From: a virus
Lineage: Duplodnaviria; Heunggongvirae; Uroviricota; Caudoviricetes
DNA: 6,450 nt
IMG/VR virus record: IMGVR_UViG_2698536403_000004
Reading direction: 5' to 3' (one strand)
The position numbers and the translations under genes were made by a program. The notes under the pieces were generated by a model, which did no database searches, was not told the origin of the DNA, and saw only the letters and a list, made by a program, of their open reading frames with translations. Shown here one piece after another: positions 1-6,450 of this stretch (position 1 is its first letter; every line of letters starts with the position of its first letter).

Positions 1-438
1 GAATGTTGCCATGTCTTCCTGCAACAATTCCTGTGCGCTAATAACCATATCAACGGTGATGTTTTCACATGTGTCGAACTTAACCATGAGAGCGTTCTGT
101 ACTTCAGGGGCCAGCTTGTCAAAAGTGACGTTCATTAGATCGGATTCAGTCTCAACCGGGACAAAAGAAGCAGAATCCTCATCCCAGCGGTTTTCCTGCA
201 TATATTCAGCATCCCATGAATCGAGGGCAGGGCGGGGTATGCCAGGTTTATCCTCGCAGATAATAAATTTATAAGCGCAGTCCTGAGCAGCCGGATAATG
301 TTCCAGGAATTGCCAGTGAAATTTTGCTCGAGCACGGCGTTCGTCGCCAGCTTCAATAGCTGTGGCTACAGCCACAGCGCCTTCTTCCCTTGTTGCCAGT
401 TCGTCAGGAATGGCGGCGCAAATAAAGACTTTACTCAT
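1..438 (-). CDS. Hypothetical prophage early protein, acidic; 5' end complete, 3' end runs off the window (146 codons visible)
   Basis: ATG at 438..436 on minus strand with GAGGT about 9 nt upstream; frame open without stop to position 1; begins MSKVFICAAIPDELATREEG. Not in the ORF track because no stop lies inside the window. Confidence 0.55.
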   Translation of the reverse strand, partial: MSKVFICAAIPDELATREEGAVAVATAIEAGDERRARAKFHWQFLEHYPAAQDCAYKFIICEDKPGIPRPALDSWDAEYMQENRWDEDSASFVPVETESDLMNVTFDKLAPEVQNALMVKFDTCENITVDMVISAQELLQEDMATF

Positions 439-531
439 TTTGTTTTAACCTCATGACAGATTTAAGGATGAACAAATCCCTGCCATTGCTGGCATATAAG
501 AATGAAACCGGATATTTATTACGGAACTGTT

Positions 532-723
532 TTAAAGACCTGCCGGGATTTCGATATTATCCTGGTGAATAACTTTATCGACCGGGTAACAGTTACCGGG
601 AATTTTCTGTTCGGTTGCTGCAGTCATACACTCCTGCATTGTCCTGTGAACACTGACTGCAATATCAACTGGCTCTCCGGAAACAAGAAAAACTGTCAGA
701 ACAAGTGCAAATGCTGTATTCAT
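532..723 (-). CDS. Small protein (63 aa) with hydrophobic N-terminus (signal peptide or TM) and two Cys in the C-terminal part
   Basis: ATG at 723 preceded by AAGGA 8 nt upstream; start overlaps the stop of the upstream gene in an ATGA junction (721..723 / 720..722), suggesting translational coupling. Track ORF 532..777 trimmed to the RBS-supported start. Product MNTAFALVLTVFLVSGEPV... Confidence 0.45.
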   Translation of the reverse strand: MNTAFALVLTVFLVSGEPVDIAVSVHRTMQECMTAATEQKIPGNCYPVDKVIHQDNIEIPAGL

Positions 724-908
724 TGCCAGCATCCTTTTTGTATCGGACGTAAACGGGCCAGCATTGAAAGAATGCATATTTTATTTAATAACTCCCGTTC
801 GTGTTTTCTCTTGTTAATGGCATCTTCAGTAAATACAGGGTTACTGATAGTGACACCAATTTCAAAACAACCTTCAGACGTATTAACGTTTGGTAATAAC
901 GTTTCCAT
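720..908 (-). CDS. Small hypothetical protein (62 aa)
   Basis: ATG at 908 with GAGGA 7 nt upstream; track ORF 720..1013 begins at a non-ATG start with no RBS, so the internal ATG is preferred. Product METLLPNVNTSEGCFEIGVT... Confidence 0.45.
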   Translation of the reverse strand: METLLPNVNTSEGCFEIGVTISNPVFTEDAINKRKHERELLNKICILSMLARLRPIQKGCWQ

Positions 909-925
909 TATCGCGTCCTCAACAA

Positions 926-1073
926 TGAATTTTGTGATGCGGTGCCTGGTGCCTCCAGGTGACGTTAACCAGTTAACAATTAACGCCGGATACAGAGAAT
1001 CCACCCATAACACTGTTTTTGGTTTTAACTGTTCCGCGTGCGCTGAGCCGCATTCACCGCATCACAAAATTCA
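926..1073. repeat. Perfect 19-bp inverted repeat pair (926..944 TGAATTTTGTGATGCGGTG and 1055..1073 CACCGCATCACAAAATTCA) bracketing 110 bp that contains further nested palindromes
   Basis: Arms are exact reverse complements when read directly from the sequence; the interior holds CCTGG..CCAGG and GTTAAC..GTTAAC dyads; located just upstream of the minus-strand gene starting at 908. Confidence 0.8.
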
Positions 1074-1475
1074 CTTTAAAAAGGGCGGCAGAGCAGCCAC
1101 GGAGTAAAACTGATACCGCCAAACGTCACCAGAAAATTGATAACAGAGGGCGTTGCAGCGGGGTTGTCACTTAAGCGTATGGTCAACCTGACAACCCGAT
1201 GTCCTCAACGGGGAAGGAATAACCCCGCCATACTTACCGCCGCGCCATTTCGCGGAGTGCCACAACCGGAAGCGCACGGTCGACGAAAATTTAACGACAG
1301 GTTATCTATGAACCAGCTACCTCGCCGTGCGCTTTCGCGTTATGGTCTGACTTTTCATGGAAATATCCTTTCAGTAAACTGTCAGTGCCGGATGCTCACC
1401 CGTGTCCGGCGCACGCACTCCACCTCACCCGTGGAGAACTCCTTAATTACCAACCTTAGCTTCGTTGGTTAGCTA

Positions 1476-1694
1476 TTAACGCGGGTATGTAATCATTCTG
1501 GCAATGCTTAATGCCGCTGCTTTTTCCAGCCTGGTGATATCCTGCTCCAGAGCGGACAGATTTTCAGCCTGCTTAGCCCTGGCTTCATTAGCCCATTTCA
1601 GATCCTGCGCTGCATTAATTTTCTGGCGCATCCACTCATAAAGTTCATCATCGGTATAGTCTGGCGCGATGATGACGGGTTCTCGTTTCTGCAT
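1476..1694 (-). CDS. Small hypothetical prophage protein (72 aa), charged and helical
   Basis: ATG at 1694 with GAGGA 6 nt upstream; product MQKREPVIIAPDYTDDELYEWMRQ...; same strand as the leftward operon. Confidence 0.55.
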   Translation of the reverse strand: MQKREPVIIAPDYTDDELYEWMRQKINAAQDLKWANEARAKQAENLSALEQDITRLEKAAALSIARMITYPR

Positions 1695-1723
1695 ACTGAT
1701 TCCTCGCGGTGCTGTTTCGCTTA

Positions 1724-1852
1724 TCAGCCGTTAGATTTTGCCGAACTGGAAAGCGCCTGTTTAAACTCACTGAAGCTGAGAGCTTCTTCGCCTTCGGCAA
1801 GGCCTTCGAAGTATTCTTCGTAAGCCTTTTCCATGATTGTGTCGAAATCCAT
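1724..1852 (-). CDS. Very small acidic protein (42 aa), below the length cutoff of the ORF track
   Basis: ATG at 1852 with GGTGA 5 nt upstream; starts 1 nt after the stop of the upstream gene (1854..1856); product MDFDTIMEKAYEEYFEGLAEGEEALSFSEFKQALSSSAKSNG. Confidence 0.4.
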   Translation of the reverse strand: MDFDTIMEKAYEEYFEGLAEGEEALSFSEFKQALSSSAKSNG

Positions 1853-1853
1853 A

Positions 1854-2090
1854 TCACTCACCTGAGTTTCTTTCCAGCCAGCGACGGGCACCATTTTCGG
1901 TTTTAAACGTTTTGCTTTTGGTATACGTCATTGCGGTGAACGTGCCGTCCTGGTTTGGAAATACGCCGTACACCAGAGATTCGTTGTTGCCAAGATCGAT
2001 AGTATCCATGCTGACCTCATTTCCCCTTAACGCCGGGGTAGCGGAACAAAAACCTGCTGCATAGTTATTAAAGTTGAACCCTGCCGTCAT
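1854..2090 (-). CDS. Small hypothetical protein (78 aa), first gene of the leftward early operon
   Basis: ATG at 2090 with GAGG about 9 nt upstream; an internal Met would give a 51-aa product, so the start is uncertain. No arginine-rich motif, so not obviously an N-type antiterminator. Confidence 0.5.
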   Translation of the reverse strand: MTAGFNFNNYAAGFCSATPALRGNEVSMDTIDLGNNESLVYGVFPNQDGTFTAMTYTKSKTFKTENGARRWLERNSGE

Positions 2091-2195
2091 GTTCTTACGC
2101 CTCGGGCTGGCTACTTAACCCCTGACCACTGCCTGGTAACTCGAAGTATTGCCCTGCATTCTGTGGGGCGGGGTGGGTTGGTATGAAAAGAAGGA

Positions 2196-2232
2196 TACCC
2201 ATAGGTATTTAAAAAGTAAATACCCATGGGTA
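2196..2232. promoter_or_regulatory. Candidate oL/pL: 16-bp-arm palindrome TACCCATAGGTATTTA-aaaag-TAAATACCCATGGGTA (15/16 symmetric) overlapping a possible leftward promoter
   Basis: Palindrome read directly; on the minus strand TTTACT, a 17-nt spacer and TATCCT fit a -35/-10 pair; the arms contain the same TGGGTATT/TAGGTATT motif seen at oR. Confidence 0.45.
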
Positions 2233-2274
2233 ACTTTTTGCGGTGTCTTAACTGGTGACTAGTTGTTTGGTGAG

Positions 2275-2694
2275 CTATGATGCGTTTTGTGCTTTCTTTT
2301 TACGGATTTCTTCGTAGATCATATTGTAATACTGTTTTTTCTCTTCAAGAGTTTTTAATAAGTTATCCGCTTCACTTTCTGGCAGTTCGTCTAAGAGATC
2401 TAAAAAAATACGTTGTCGTGGCGTTAGAACCCTTGTTTCATAACTGGAGGCTGTGTTCGTTGATGATGAAACGATACCATCCATCCATCCCCGGGGTAAC
2501 CCAAAGGACTCTTCGATAATCTCCACCATATCATCAGCGATCCGTTTTTTTCCCTTTTTCCCCTCTGGGTACAACATTCTTGATACATAAGAAGGCTCGC
2601 GCCCGATCTTTCTGGCCACGTTAACCGCTTTACCATCGCATTTCTCATCACGAATTTTGATGAGTTGCTGTCGTCTAAATTCATATTTGTCCAT
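2275..2694 (-). CDS. Prophage repressor, short HTH type (139 aa; CI/RacR-like role), no C-terminal peptidase domain
   Basis: Divergent from a Cro-like gene across an operator-rich spacer; HTH-like segment GKAVNVARKIGREPSYVSRMLY; length too short for an S24 peptidase domain. No SD upstream of the ATG and a TATTAT hexamer 5-10 nt upstream suggest a leaderless mRNA. Confidence 0.7.
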   Translation of the reverse strand: MDKYEFRRQQLIKIRDEKCDGKAVNVARKIGREPSYVSRMLYPEGKKGKKRIADDMVEIIEESFGLPRGWMDGIVSSSTNTASSYETRVLTPRQRIFLDLLDELPESEADNLLKTLEEKKQYYNMIYEEIRKKKAQNAS

Positions 2695-2722
2695 AGGTAA
2701 ATAATAGATGCGATTACTGCAA

Positions 2723-2770
2723 GGTAAACAACCTGTGGGTATTGACTTTTGTTTACCTGTGGGTATTCTT
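2723..2770. promoter_or_regulatory. Candidate oR/pR: two exact 13-bp direct repeats ACCTGTGGGTATT (2731..2743, 2755..2767) plus an 8-bp inverted repeat GGTAAACA/TGTTTACC (2723..2730, 2750..2757), overlapping -35 TTGACT (2742..2747) and -10 TATTCT (2764..2769)
   Basis: Repeats and hexamers read directly; 16-bp spacer; AAGGAG RBS at 2783..2788 precedes the ATG at 2795 of the Cro-like gene. Confidence 0.55.
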
Positions 2771-2794
2771 TGCTGTGTTTACTAAGGAGTAGCT

Positions 2795-3076
2795 ATGGAA
2801 GAATTAAGAATATTTCTCAATTCTCTTTCGTCAGATGAACAGCGTATGTTTGCATGCGAGTGTGGTACCAGCATCGGTTATCTAAGAAAGGCATTGAGTA
2901 AAGGTCAAGTGTTAGGGGCATCGTTATGTGTCCTTATTGAGCGAGCCAGTAATGGTGAAGTTACACGTCAGCAACTAAGGCCTTTTGATTGGATGAATAT
3001 TTGGCCCGAGCTGGAAGATACCAAAACGTTAACACAACCACTTTCTAGGAGCTTGATTCATGAAAATCAAGCATGA
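2795..3076 (+). CDS. ydaS: Cro-like HTH regulator of the YdaS type (93 aa)
   Basis: AAGGAG 6 nt upstream of ATG; divergent from the repressor; protein pattern ...CGTSIGYLRKALSKGQ...IERASNGEVTRQQLRPFDW resembles the YdaS/Cro-like family as I remember it; not verified by search. Confidence 0.55.
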   Translation: MEELRIFLNSLSSDEQRMFACECGTSIGYLRKALSKGQVLGASLCVLIERASNGEVTRQQLRPFDWMNIWPELEDTKTLTQPLSRSLIHENQA

Positions 3077-3485
3077 ACACATCCGCATGGCGATGAATGC
3101 CTGGGCGCGTCCTGATGGCGAAAAAGTTCCAGCAGCTGGAATAACCCAGGCTTATTTTGAGTTGGGTATAACGTTTCCTGAACTGTATGACGACAGCCAT
3201 CCGGAAGCCCTGGCTCGCAATACACAGAAAATTTTCCGCTGGGTAGAGAAAGACACCCCTGATGCTGTTGAAAAAATTCAGGCGTTGTTACCAGCGATCG
3301 AAAAGGCAATGCCACCTTTGCTGGTGGCCCGAATGCGCAGCCACAGTTCAGCCTATTTTCGGGAGCTGGTGGAGACGCGGGAACGACTGGTGAGAGACGC
3401 TGATGATTTTGTCGCAGTGGCGATTGCCGGTTTCAATCAGATGAACCGTGGTGGCCCTGCAGGAAATGCCGTGGTGATGCACTAA
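3060..3485 (+). CDS. ydaT: YdaT-like protein (141 aa), in the cII-equivalent position
   Basis: AGGAG 8 nt upstream of ATG at 3060; overlaps the preceding gene by 17 nt; N-terminus MKIKHEHI matches my recollection of YdaT family proteins; follows the Cro-like gene as in Rac-type prophages. Confidence 0.5.
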   Translation: MKIKHEHIRMAMNAWARPDGEKVPAAGITQAYFELGITFPELYDDSHPEALARNTQKIFRWVEKDTPDAVEKIQALLPAIEKAMPPLLVARMRSHSSAYFRELVETRERLVRDADDFVAVAIAGFNQMNRGGPAGNAVVMH

Positions 3486-3493
3486 AAGCACGG

Positions 3494-3715
3494 ATGGCGT
3501 TAACAATGACGGAGGGGGCTGTGAATCTACCTGATTTTTTTACTGTTCTTGCCTGTGGTATTGGTGGGGCTCTGGCCGGACATTTTATCGTGAATCTGTT
3601 CACCTGGTATCTCTTTGGTTTCAGGGATTACTTCACCCGATGGACTTTAAATTGTCTTCGTCGGTTCATTGGGCGCAAGCCTGATATGAGGATTTGGAAA
3701 GATGAAAAACGCTGA
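3494..3715 (+). CDS. Small hydrophobic protein, one predicted TM segment (65-73 aa depending on start)
   Basis: ORF with TM-like stretch FFTVLACGIGGALAGHFIVNLFTWYLFGF; the best RBS (GGAGG, 5-nt spacer) precedes GTG at 3521 rather than ATG at 3494; stop lies 4 nt from the stop of the convergent minus-strand gene. Confidence 0.4.
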   Translation: MALTMTEGAVNLPDFFTVLACGIGGALAGHFIVNLFTWYLFGFRDYFTRWTLNCLRRFIGRKPDMRIWKDEKR

Positions 3716-3719
3716 TTGT

Positions 3720-4115
3720 TTATGGCATCGGGAGGCCGTTTTTCTCCCGATATCGCTCGATCTCTGCCTGAATTGCTGCAACAGCACACATGGAGTCGTA
3801 CTGGATCAGTCTGAGATTTTCAATCGTGAATTTGTCTTCCTCCATCAGGTTGAGCATACGAAAGTATCGAAAGACGTAAACTTCTGGGCCGCTGACACCA
3901 TACCCCTTTGCCTTCGATATGGTTTGGTGGAGCTCCCATTCTTTCAATGCGAGGGTGAGAGCCATTTCTCTTATTTTTGCTCTGGCTTCAGCAGCCCGGC
4001 GTTGCGCTTCAATGGTTCGTTCCGATTTGCGTTGCCAGGCACCATTAACCAGCGAAACCACGCCAGCAACACACGCACTCAACACAACGCTACTTGTGAT
4101 AGTTGCAAAATCCAT
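3720..4115 (-). CDS. Membrane-anchored protein (131 aa): N-terminal TM helix followed by a basic, helical cytoplasmic domain; moron-like, function unknown
   Basis: ATG at 4115 with GAGGAGG 6 nt upstream; TATAAT (complement of 4155..4160) upstream on the minus strand; product MDFATITSSVVLSACVAGVVSLVNGAWQRKSERTIEAQRRAAEARAK...; positive residues after the TM place the C-domain in the cytoplasm. Confidence 0.65.
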   Translation of the reverse strand: MDFATITSSVVLSACVAGVVSLVNGAWQRKSERTIEAQRRAAEARAKIREMALTLALKEWELHQTISKAKGYGVSGPEVYVFRYFRMLNLMEEDKFTIENLRLIQYDSMCAVAAIQAEIERYREKNGLPMP

Positions 4116-4194
4116 TTCGAACCTCCTCTGGTTCTGTTGATTAGTGAATCACAGATTATAACCAGAGGAAGGTTTGGCTCCAGACGAGGTGAAC
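4116..4194. promoter_or_regulatory. Divergent promoter/RBS region between the moron and the replication gene, with an imperfect inverted repeat (4121..4133 vs 4160..4173)
   Basis: Minus strand: TATAAT then GAGGAGG then ATG. Plus strand: possible TGTTGA -35 and TATAAC -10, then GAGG 5 nt before ATG 4195. CCTCTGGT / ACCAGAGG form an exact 8-bp inverted repeat. Confidence 0.4.
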
Positions 4195-5280
4195 ATGCGT
4201 GATTATGCAAAAGTTTCCCCGCGATTCTGGCTGGGAGAAACGGGGAGAGAACTTAGAAAGGCGGGTGCAGAAGCGCAAGTTGTTGCTTTTTACCTGATGA
4301 CATCCCCTCACGCAAATATGTTGGGTTTGTATTACCTGCCAGTTTTGTACCTTGCTCATGAAACCGGGCTTGGTCCGGAAGGGGCTTCGAAGGGGCTTAA
4401 AAGGGCTGTTGAAGCTGGTTTTTGTAGCTATGACCATGATGCCGAGATGGTCTGGGTCCATGAAATGGCAGCCTGGCAGGTTGGGGAAACGTTGAAGCCT
4501 GGAGATAACCGTTGTGCAGGTGTCAGGAATGAGTATGCATCATTACCTGAAAACGCCTTTCTGTCAGCCTTTTACGACAGATATAAAACGGATTTCCATC
4601 TGGATGTGAGGCGGAATAATCGCCGGAATTCAGCAAGGGGCTTCGAAGAGGCTTTAAAGGGGCTTCTAAGCCAAGAACAGGAACAGGAGAAAGAACAGGA
4701 GCAGGATAAAAATACTATGCTTCATGGCGAAAAAATCGCCACGAACCAGGCAGGGGATGTTCAGAACGTCAATCCTGGTCAGCCAGCAGGCACGACACCG
4801 GAAGCCGATTCGGGCGCTGTGCAGCAGGCGATGACCGCAAGGCCGGAACAATCACACCAACTGCAGCAGCCTGAAGCCGATTCCGCCATTCAGCGGGAAG
4901 CCGATCAGGTAGTCCCGGAAAACACCGGGCAGCCTGTGGGACGAGTGGATTATCCGGATGTGTTCGAACAGGTCTGGCGGGAATACCCGTTGCGTGCCGG
5001 AGCAAACCCGAAGAAATCCGCTTTCAGTGCCTGGAAGGCCAGATTACGCGAGGGGGTGCCACCAGAGGCCATGCTGGATGGCGTGAGGCGTTACGCAAGA
5101 TACCTGGCGACTACCGGGAAAACGGGAACGGAATTTGTTCAGCGAGCGACGACGTTTTTTGGACCGGACCGGAATTTTGAAAACCCCTGGTTGCTCCCGG
5201 TAAGCGGCACGAACAACCAGCGTTGTGTGAATCATGTTTCTGAACCGGATACCGAAATTCCGCCAGGCTTCAGGGGGTAA
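4195..5280 (+). CDS. Putative replication initiation / replisome-organiser-type protein (361 aa; YdaU/O-position analogue), with a low-complexity acidic Q/E-rich linker
   Basis: ATG at 4195 with GAGG 5 nt upstream (in-frame TTG at 4174 is an alternative); sits where O-type genes lie; C-terminal segment DYPDVFEQVWREYPLRAGANPKKSAFSAWKARL...FFGPDRNFENPW resembles conserved phage replication-protein C-terminal domains as I remember them; unverified. Confidence 0.55.
   Translation: MRDYAKVSPRFWLGETGRELRKAGAEAQVVAFYLMTSPHANMLGLYYLPVLYLAHETGLGPEGASKGLKRAVEAGFCSYDHDAEMVWVHEMAAWQVGETLKPGDNRCAGVRNEYASLPENAFLSAFYDRYKTDFHLDVRRNNRRNSARGFEEALKGLLSQEQEQEKEQEQDKNTMLHGEKIATNQAGDVQNVNPGQPAGTTPEADSGAVQQAMTARPEQSHQLQQPEADSAIQREADQVVPENTGQPVGRVDYPDVFEQVWREYPLRAGANPKKSAFSAWKARLREGVPPEAMLDGVRRYARYLATTGKTGTEFVQRATTFFGPDRNFENPWLLPVSGTNNQRCVNHVSEPDTEIPPGFRG
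4379..4666. repeat. Short direct repeats inside the replication gene: AAGGGGCTT at 4379, 4390, 4635 and 4657, including an exact 14-mer AAGGGGCTTCGAAG at 4379..4392 and 4635..4648
   Basis: Read directly; two pairs about 250 bp apart; further repeats GAACAGGA x3 (4675..4700) and GAAGCCGAT x3 (about 4801, 4874, 4898) lie in the linker. Confidence 0.6.
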
Positions 5281-5320
5281 GTGTTTATTTCAGGTCATGA
5301 GGTAATTTTCAGGAGGGCTT

Positions 5321-5746
5321 GTGGCAAAAGTTTTTACACAAGAAGAGCGAGAAAAAATTAAAGGGCAGGTTGTTGAGCTAGTACGCCGGAGTGGGCGCGA
5401 GACGTTACGGCAACTGGAAGCCAAGACAGGTGCGACAAGATATCTGATGAGCGTTCTCGCCAGAGAGCTGGTTGCCAGTGGTGATGTATACAACTCTGGT
5501 TACGGGTTATTCCCGTCTGAACAGGCTCGTAAGGACTGGCAAAACGCCCGCAAAAAACTCTCAAGGGCAAAGCTGAAGAAAAAAACACCTGTGGTTGATC
5601 CGGACCTTATCTGGTCGTTACCAGACGGAGAAATACGTCGTTATGACAGGCGTCAGAACATAATCTGTAGCGAGTGCCGGAAGAGCGAAGTTATGCAGCG
5701 CGTGCTGGCGTTTTATCAGGGGAATTTTCAGGAGGTGGTGCTGTGA
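5321..5746 (+). CDS. Hypothetical protein (141 aa), possible winged-helix-like N-terminus
   Basis: GTG start at 5321 preceded by AGGAGGG (short 4-nt spacer); long ORF co-directional with the replication gene; product MAKVFTQEEREKIKGQVVELVRRSG... Confidence 0.5.
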   Translation: MAKVFTQEEREKIKGQVVELVRRSGRETLRQLEAKTGATRYLMSVLARELVASGDVYNSGYGLFPSEQARKDWQNARKKLSRAKLKKKTPVVDPDLIWSLPDGEIRRYDRRQNIICSECRKSEVMQRVLAFYQGNFQEVVL

Positions 5747-5803
5747 GTGAAATTAGCTATCAGGCTTCAATTGCCGCTGGCATTCGCATCAAAGGAGAGG
5801 AGC

Positions 5804-6160
5804 ATGGAAATAAAACCAGAAGATGAGTTAAGTAATATTGTTTTATTTCCGGTAAAAGAGGATGACCCACGTAATCAGGTTAATTTTCTTTATGAGCCAT
5901 CGGAAAGACCATATTGTCATCACGCCTCTGTCCGGGTTGACGAAAAAGAGCGTCAGGTCCGCTGTAAAATCTGCGGTGCAGTTGTGGAGCCATTTGACTG
6001 GATGCTCTCTGTGGCGAAAAGAGAAACCAGACTGGCAGATGATGTAAGGCTCTTGCGCCAGGAGGAACGGGAAAGGCGGAGAAATATAGAAAAGCTAATT
6101 CAGATTGAGCGTAACGCGAAAGCGCGGATACGCAGGGCGGCAAAATCAAGAACTGAATAA
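5804..6160 (+). CDS. Hypothetical protein (118 aa) with a possible zinc-ribbon (C-H-H...C-x2-C) and a basic coiled-coil C-terminus
   Basis: ATG at 5804 with AAGGAG 6 nt upstream (the track's GTG start at 5747 lacks an RBS); product MEIKPEDELS...YCHHASVRVDEKERQVRCKICG... Confidence 0.5.
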   Translation: MEIKPEDELSNIVLFPVKEDDPRNQVNFLYEPSERPYCHHASVRVDEKERQVRCKICGAVVEPFDWMLSVAKRETRLADDVRLLRQEERERRRNIEKLIQIERNAKARIRRAAKSRTE

Positions 6161-6245
6161 TTAAATTTAGCACTGTTAAAAATTTAATCCTTAACCGGAG
6201 GGATTTCTGCACCCTCAGAACATCAGGAGGCCGTTCGAAATGGCG

Positions 6246-6450
6246 GTAAGCGTGCAGCAAGAACCGTATTGACGGGGATGTGTTATTCAGTCGGCAGTGC
6301 TACGCGCCAGGGGAGCAGTTCGCCGACCCGGCGTTACGGTCGTCACGAACGTAGGTCCATAACCGCCCGGTCTTCGTTTTCTTATTGCCTGGCAACAGCA
6401 CCGGGACAGGCGTGTCATCAGCATGGAGCTTACCGTCAGTCAGCACATAG
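6246..6450 (-). mobile_element. IS66-family insertion sequence remnant: terminal GTAAGCG end at 6246 and an internally deleted transposase; continues past the window
   Basis: Minus-strand translation gives ...HADDTPVPVLLPGNKKTKTGRLWTYVRDDRNAGS, matching the middle of IS66-type transposases as I remember them, then jumps in another frame to a C-terminal-like tail ...ELLPWRVALPTE-stop; the plus strand carries GTAAGCGTGCAGCAAGAACCGTATTGACGG at 6246, consistent with the 5'-GTAA terminal repeat of this family. Confidence 0.55.
6283..6449 (-). pseudogene. IS66-family transposase fragment with a large internal deletion and frameshift (junction near 6315..6327)
   Basis: N-terminal/middle homology ends after RDDRNAGS (about 6324); the C-terminal tail is read in a different frame (6286..6327) and ends at the stop 6283..6285. 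Confidence 0.5.

Follow-up and report, generated by a model that had tools for sequence, protein, structure and literature searches.

The described systems closest to this locus are the insertion sequence ISEc22, of the IS66 family, and the Rac/Qin-like lambdoid prophages of E. coli. A terminal inverted repeat starting with GTAAGCG is, we assume, typical of IS66-family elements, and the 2454 bp seen for an intact copy in one relative of the present locus (L018) is presumably the length of ISEc22 itself. The element is multi-copy in many E. coli, with a median of 3 matching places per genome having any, and up to 23. Insertion of IS66-family elements duplicates 8 bp of the target (PMC6778807, citing Machida 1984; PMC3281130, table of IS characteristics). 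In prophages of the Rac/Qin kind intergenic IS insertions are routine, cases among the relatives compared here being the IS21-type genes of L009 and a second IS66-family element in L018. The two systems meet in the window, as we call the whole 6,450-nucleotide stretch of viral DNA that was analysed: its host locus is a Rac/Qin-like lambdoid prophage, adjoining potC in all relatives examined, and positions 6246-6450 are the tnpC-proximal end of ISEc22 (IRR, read as its reverse complement), antisense to the rightward early operon and lying between the replication genes and the nin/Q region.

Protein and nucleotide comparisons both identify the element. At 6246 the window reads GTAAGCGTGCAGC...; translation of 6300-6449 on the minus strand gives YVLTDGKLHADDTPVPVLLPGNKKTKTGRLWTYVRDDRNAGSANCSPGA, the stop following at 6302-6300. 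This peptide matches Pfam PF03050, DDE_Tnp_IS66, over profile positions 64-101 of 284 (E=1.7e-9; 37.9 bits against a cut-off of 23.1 bits), and as a 49-aa fragment it matches NCBIfam NF033517, 'IS66 family transposase', at E=9e-7, under the whole-protein cut-off because it is a fragment. A megablast search of 5426 complete E. coli genomes and of PLSDB found 6325-6450 to be 100% identical to the tnpC gene whose product RefSeq names 'IS66-like element ISEc22 family transposase'. An intact ISEc22 copy (L003, from strain E2865; tnpC of 512 aa) was compared by local BLAST, which aligned the window's end with it as two blocks: 6246-6331 with L003 2258-2343, the last 86 bp of the element at its extreme tnpC-proximal end (100%, E about 1e-39), and 6325-6450 with L003 3001-3126, internal tnpC codons 237-278 (100% over 126 bp, E about 2e-61). 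A chimera of two IS66-family members, one supplying 6246-6324 and the other 6325-6450, was considered and rejected, as both blocks are 100% identical to a single intact copy, whether that of L003 or that of L018. What the window holds is a defective derivative of ISEc22, not an active copy, to judge from the structure of its transposase gene.

That structure can be followed base by base from the phage side. The last phage gene before the IS (5804..6160, plus strand) belongs to the lambdoid early-right operon and encodes a Zn-ribbon-like hypothetical protein of 118 aa, whose match to Pfam Zn_Ribbon_TF is weak and below cut-off, and whose exact sequence is present in 342 blocks of the protein collection. 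GTAAGCG starts at 6246, which leaves a gap of 85 bp after this gene, and the last 8 bp of the gap, 6238..6245, are the left copy of a target-site duplication, AAATGGCG. The tnpC-proximal terminus follows on the minus strand (6246..6282), comprising IRR (GTAAGCGT...) and the 37-bp non-coding end, and is 100% identical to the element ends in L003 and L018. Next comes a remnant of the 3' end of tnpC (6283..6324, minus strand; stop TAA at 6283-6285), corresponding to native residues about 499-512 and reading ...VGELLPWRVALPTE* in frame 1, as does the C-terminus of intact TnpC. It gives way, through the heptamer GACCCGG (6325..6331), to the internal tnpC segment (6324..6450, minus strand), made up of the third base of codon 236 (at 6450) and codons 237-278, and 100% identical to L003 3001-3126 and L018 12795-12920. 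This segment covers the first third of the DDE_Tnp_IS66 domain, and its ORF runs past the end of the window.

The initial annotation, made from the letters alone, had placed here an IS66-type transposase with its middle portion fused out of frame to its C-terminal tail, and a GTAAGCG repeat 85 bp past the last phage gene. The Pfam and NCBIfam matches together with the 100% nucleotide blocks bear out the first of these statements, the presence of two different reading frames the second, and coordinates 6160 and 6246 the third.

The out-of-frame fusion is the product of a deletion within tnpC. Seven base pairs of the window belong to both 100% blocks, which sit 664 bp further apart in the intact copies of L003 and L018. 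Intact L018 retains both copies of the heptamer, at 12131-12137 and 12795-12801; deletion between these two GACCCGG direct repeats removed roughly codons 279-498. Since 664 is not a multiple of 3 the frame is shifted, and on translation the middle portion of tnpC and the native tail, VGELLPWRVALPTE*, read in different frames. The predicted product is TnpC 1-278 followed by seven foreign residues, ANCSPGA, and a new premature stop TAG (6300..6302, minus strand), 285 aa in all. Such a protein would keep both the leucine-zipper and the zinc-finger region, together with about 101 of the 284 DDE-domain profile positions, and would be without PF03050 positions 102-284 (~two thirds of the DDE domain) and PF13817, the IS66 C-terminal element; by Pfam and NCBIfam the intact TnpC of L018 has a complete domain architecture, whereas the protein reconstructed for the window is truncated. 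Microhomology of at least 7 bp is expected at a random junction with a chance of about 4e-4, and we infer that the deletion signature fits replication slippage or microhomology-mediated illegitimate recombination.

BLAST against the 5426 complete E. coli genomes, PLSDB plasmids and phage records did not find the deletion junction, nor did scans for its exact pattern in 185,579 species-representative genomes, JGI metagenomes and IMG/VR viral contigs. At the protein level, the reconstructed 285-aa TnpC, for which L018-like upstream sequence was assumed, has no exact match in a collection of 15 billion proteins, and the C-terminal 72 aa, which include the frameshift tail, have no homology match there that covers ANCSPGA. 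As the junction is found nowhere else, there is no sign that the deleted copy has spread. The phage/IS junction itself is carried by L020 and by metagenome contig L044, both of which keep intact IS sequence beyond the deletion point, and by L021, whose contig stops short of it. It follows that the deletion is derived and the insertion older and shared; as far as could be determined, the 664-bp loss would be private to the window's lineage.

How the element came to be where it is can be read from its relatives. Exact-protein look-up with the window's replisome-organizer protein led to L018 (GCA_040813315.1, a 5.29-Mb contig), which is 99.9% identical to window 807-6331, ~5.5 kb. Inserted at the base where the window has its copy, and with the same orientation, L018 carries an intact ISEc22 of 2454 bp with the gene order tnpA (134 aa), tnpB (115 aa), tnpC (512 aa), whose proteins match the NCBIfam models NF047595/NF038385 (TnpA), NF033819 (TnpB) and NF033517 (TnpC). 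Both of its ends start GTAAGCGT, 17 of the first 26 positions being common to the two, and it is flanked by AAATGGCG at 12044-12051 and at 14506-14513, a perfect 8-bp duplication; the octamer had been put forward as the target-site duplication when the window was first read, and in this near-identical relative, both copies being present, it proves to be just that. When the IS and one copy of the duplication are removed in silico, the L018 sequence aligns without gaps over 501 bp with uninterrupted relatives, at 99.8% identity to L017, 99.2% to L016, 98.4% to L005 and 96.8% to L013. As read from these sequences, the comparison of filled with empty site is proof of simple transposition in the relatives.

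Carriers of this insertion were found only among draft and metagenome assemblies: L018, L020, L021 and L044. BLAST found the insertion site in none of the 5426 complete RefSeq E. coli genomes, nor, as a contiguous match, in PLSDB or the phage records. The exact pattern of the phage/IS junction occurs in no contig of the species-representative genomes and in no viral contig; one metagenome contig has it, L044, with intact IS sequence, and ends 450 bp into the IS. In 91 complete E. coli genomes ISEc22 has inserted independently about 220 bp to the right of this site, directly past the DUF7167 gene of related prophages, and in one of these genomes, E. coli VE-V11-M (L023 3604-5822), the element is frameshifted and truncated. 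The short spacer region around DUF7167 may be a recurrent ISEc22 target.

A more far-reaching claim of the initial annotation was that the IS truncates the prophage, with the nin, Q and lysis regions deleted or displaced. This is unsupported: the phage of L018 continues beyond the IS, and the window's deletion is internal to tnpC. A check of the downstream sequence for late genes, which the annotation had recommended and which we carried out in L018, shows DUF7167, hok, DUF968, RusA and the antiterminator Q to be present past the IS, in a genome that remains collinear with uninterrupted L017 for 5343 bp after it. The start codon of the DUF7167 gene lies in L018 8 bp beyond the second copy of AAATGGCG. 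In all ten of the uninterrupted places shown, the DUF7167 gene comes about 94 bp after the 118-aa gene, and is followed by a variable nin-like region (hok; Rem, DUF968 and RusA in most) and then by Q and the lysis genes. On the window's own side, the deletion lies strictly inside tnpC, leaving the IS terminus and its junction with the phage untouched, and the 6245 bp of phage DNA contain no disrupted genes. L022 is 99.97% identical to the window over 1-5996, the extent of its contig, with two substitutions, both outside complete ORFs; the only window-specific SNP is at position 136, in a gene running off the window. Of the annotation's phrase 'decay or rearrangement breakpoint', decay stands, in the form of a frame-shifting deletion internal to the IS, and rearrangement breakpoint is not supported, given the clean insertion in L018. 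The interpretation offered in the annotation is accordingly supported in part; by itself the IS is not shown to cut the prophage short, and the window ends inside it at 6450.

Losses of prophage DNA were observed at the other end. In L020 (6602-7085) potC is joined directly to window position about 1280, with no int, exonuclease, dicB or DicF; in L021 (8264-9163) a partial int is joined directly to about 3357, so that the stretch from int to ydaT is missing, the immunity region included. The prophage lineage may thus be decaying in some strains, on the opposite (left) arm and not demonstrably through this IS.

Other features of the window bear on the kind of prophage it represents. A full-length gene for the antisense sRNA DicF lies on the minus strand at 1083-1134 (Rfam RF00039; 75 bits against a gathering score of 48, E=1e-15), upstream of dicB (720-908, minus strand) and of the DUF1482 gene of the early-left operon (532-723, minus strand), an arrangement that marks this operon as Qin/Rac-like. 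The second IS66-family element of L018 (4083-6612) is a different one, with a TnpC of 537 aa; it is inserted at window position about 807-817, within dicB, and is absent from the window, and no dicB gene is called in L018. The repressor-like protein of 139 aa (2275-2694, minus strand) has no Pfam match at E<=0.01, and proteins of the same length at this position elsewhere have HTH_3-type matches; its exact sequence is present in 25,395 blocks, so that this type of immunity is widespread among E. coli prophages. An ORF of 131 aa (3720-4115, minus strand), lying antisense between ydaT and the gene for the replisome organizer, has no Pfam match, yet 1979 blocks of the collection contain its exact sequence, as befits a conserved moron-like gene.

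The explanation that best accounts for these data, and one that we hold with considerable confidence, is that a simple transposition of ISEc22 was followed by the 664-bp internal deletion of tnpC. In the first step, visible in the relatives, ISEc22 entered the intergenic spacer 85 bp past the 118-aa gene and 8 bp before DUF7167, duplicating its target, AAATGGCG. In the second, visible in the window, 664 bp were lost between the GACCCGG repeats in tnpC and the frame shifted. The copy so formed could presumably not make its own transposase, and would be mobile only with TnpC supplied in trans by another ISEc22 copy, and then only if its other end is intact. Beyond 6450 we would expect the 5' part of tnpC, tnpB, tnpA, IRL and the second AAATGGCG, then GTAGTGAAATGCGAAAATTC at the start of the DUF7167 gene, where the phage would resume; this extension of the L018 arrangement is probable, if somewhat less secure than the two steps themselves.

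Set against this explanation is the fact that the sequence past 6450 in the window's own genome is deduced, not observed. The rival reading is of a true rearrangement breakpoint, an IS-mediated adjacent deletion, or homologous recombination or inversion between ISEc22 copies, having removed or displaced nin, Q and the lysis genes so that the prophage ends at 6245. The window ends inside the IS with its far flank unseen, and the multi-copy nature of ISEc22 in many E. coli means that recombination between copies could have swapped that flank; the degenerate state of the IS copy shows that the locus has changed further since insertion, and the relatives L020 and L021, which share the insertion, have lost large parts of the other prophage arm. 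The absence of the 285-aa TnpC and its ANCSPGA tail from the protein collection bears on the same point, since the reconstruction assumes L018-like sequence upstream and the IS past 6450 may differ from that of L018. Yet L018, the sole relative with a contig across the whole IS, combines a perfect target duplication with unbroken phage downstream, the window's own deletion is internal to tnpC with terminus and junction intact, and its phage DNA is undisrupted when compared with L022 over 1-5996. We consider a breakpoint at 6245 unlikely.

Mis-assembly would also count against transposition followed by deletion: the 664-bp deletion might be an artefact of assembly or sequencing, and the real element an intact ISEc22. 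IS repeats assemble badly—this very IS is where the contigs of L020 and L021 break off, and that of L044 stops 450 bp into it—and the junction occurs nowhere else in the collections searched. A false join over 7 bp of identity is, however, not what k-mer or overlap assemblers are expected to produce; both blocks match at 100% and meet in a clean microhomology junction of the sort typical of real slippage deletions, and independent internal deletions of tnpC exist in finished plasmids. An artefact is thus very improbable, and we retain transposition followed by internal deletion as the preferred reading.

Even a defective IS might influence its surroundings. From its position it may be polar on DUF7167 and the genes downstream, unless antiterminated transcription reads through it. 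A scan of 6050-6450 for promoters and terminators found none. A Shine-Dalgarno-like AGGAGG can be read at 6225-6230, 9 nt upstream of an ATG at 6240, and in uninterrupted relatives this ATG opens a mini-ORF of 10 codons, MAVVKCENSK, that overlaps the start codon of DUF7167. The IS parts AGGAGG and ATG from DUF7167, so that translation of the latter may be affected. Truncated transposases inhibit transposition in other IS families, and by analogy the truncated TnpC, with its leucine-zipper and zinc-finger DNA-binding regions, might act as a trans-dominant inhibitor of other ISEc22 copies; alternatively, the deleted copy, with both ends, tnpA and tnpB presumed present, might be a non-autonomous element mobilised in trans. 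Either outcome appears extremely improbable.

For annotation, the 3' end of the window is best described as a defective ISEc22 copy (tnpC pseudogene) in an intergenic spacer of the prophage, not as a prophage boundary. More generally, the presence of an IS, decayed or not, where a window ends is not in itself proof that the host prophage is truncated. The shared insertion, like the private deletion of 664 bp, could be used as a lineage marker in strain typing.

Compared with the systems from which we started, the locus shows little that departs from them. Its likeness to the Rac/Qin-like lambdoid prophages of E. coli extends over exonuclease, DUF1482, dicB, DicF, DUF1391 and repressor, and on to the cro-like gene, YdaT, replisome organizer and DUF977. 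Its IS is 100% identical to ISEc22 (e.g. WP_000099160.1) over both blocks (86 + 126 bp), the terminus GTAAGCGT included, and in L018 the 8-bp target duplication is found at the same site; the window copy differs from intact ISEc22 in being without 664 bp of tnpC and in its predicted frameshifted product of 285 aa. Other ISEc22 copies have internal tnpC deletions of their own: one of 194 bp in the E. coli plasmid pE100416_79 (L001 3001-3676), and one of about 114 bp, which leaves an ORF of 474 aa, in large plasmids of Shigella dysenteriae (L002 3001-3755). Both fall in the 3' half of tnpC and leave the terminus in place, with breakpoints and sizes that differ from those of the window, so such decay is commonplace. 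The window thus shows a known element, in a defective copy, at a locus of a known type, an instance of ordinary IS decay.
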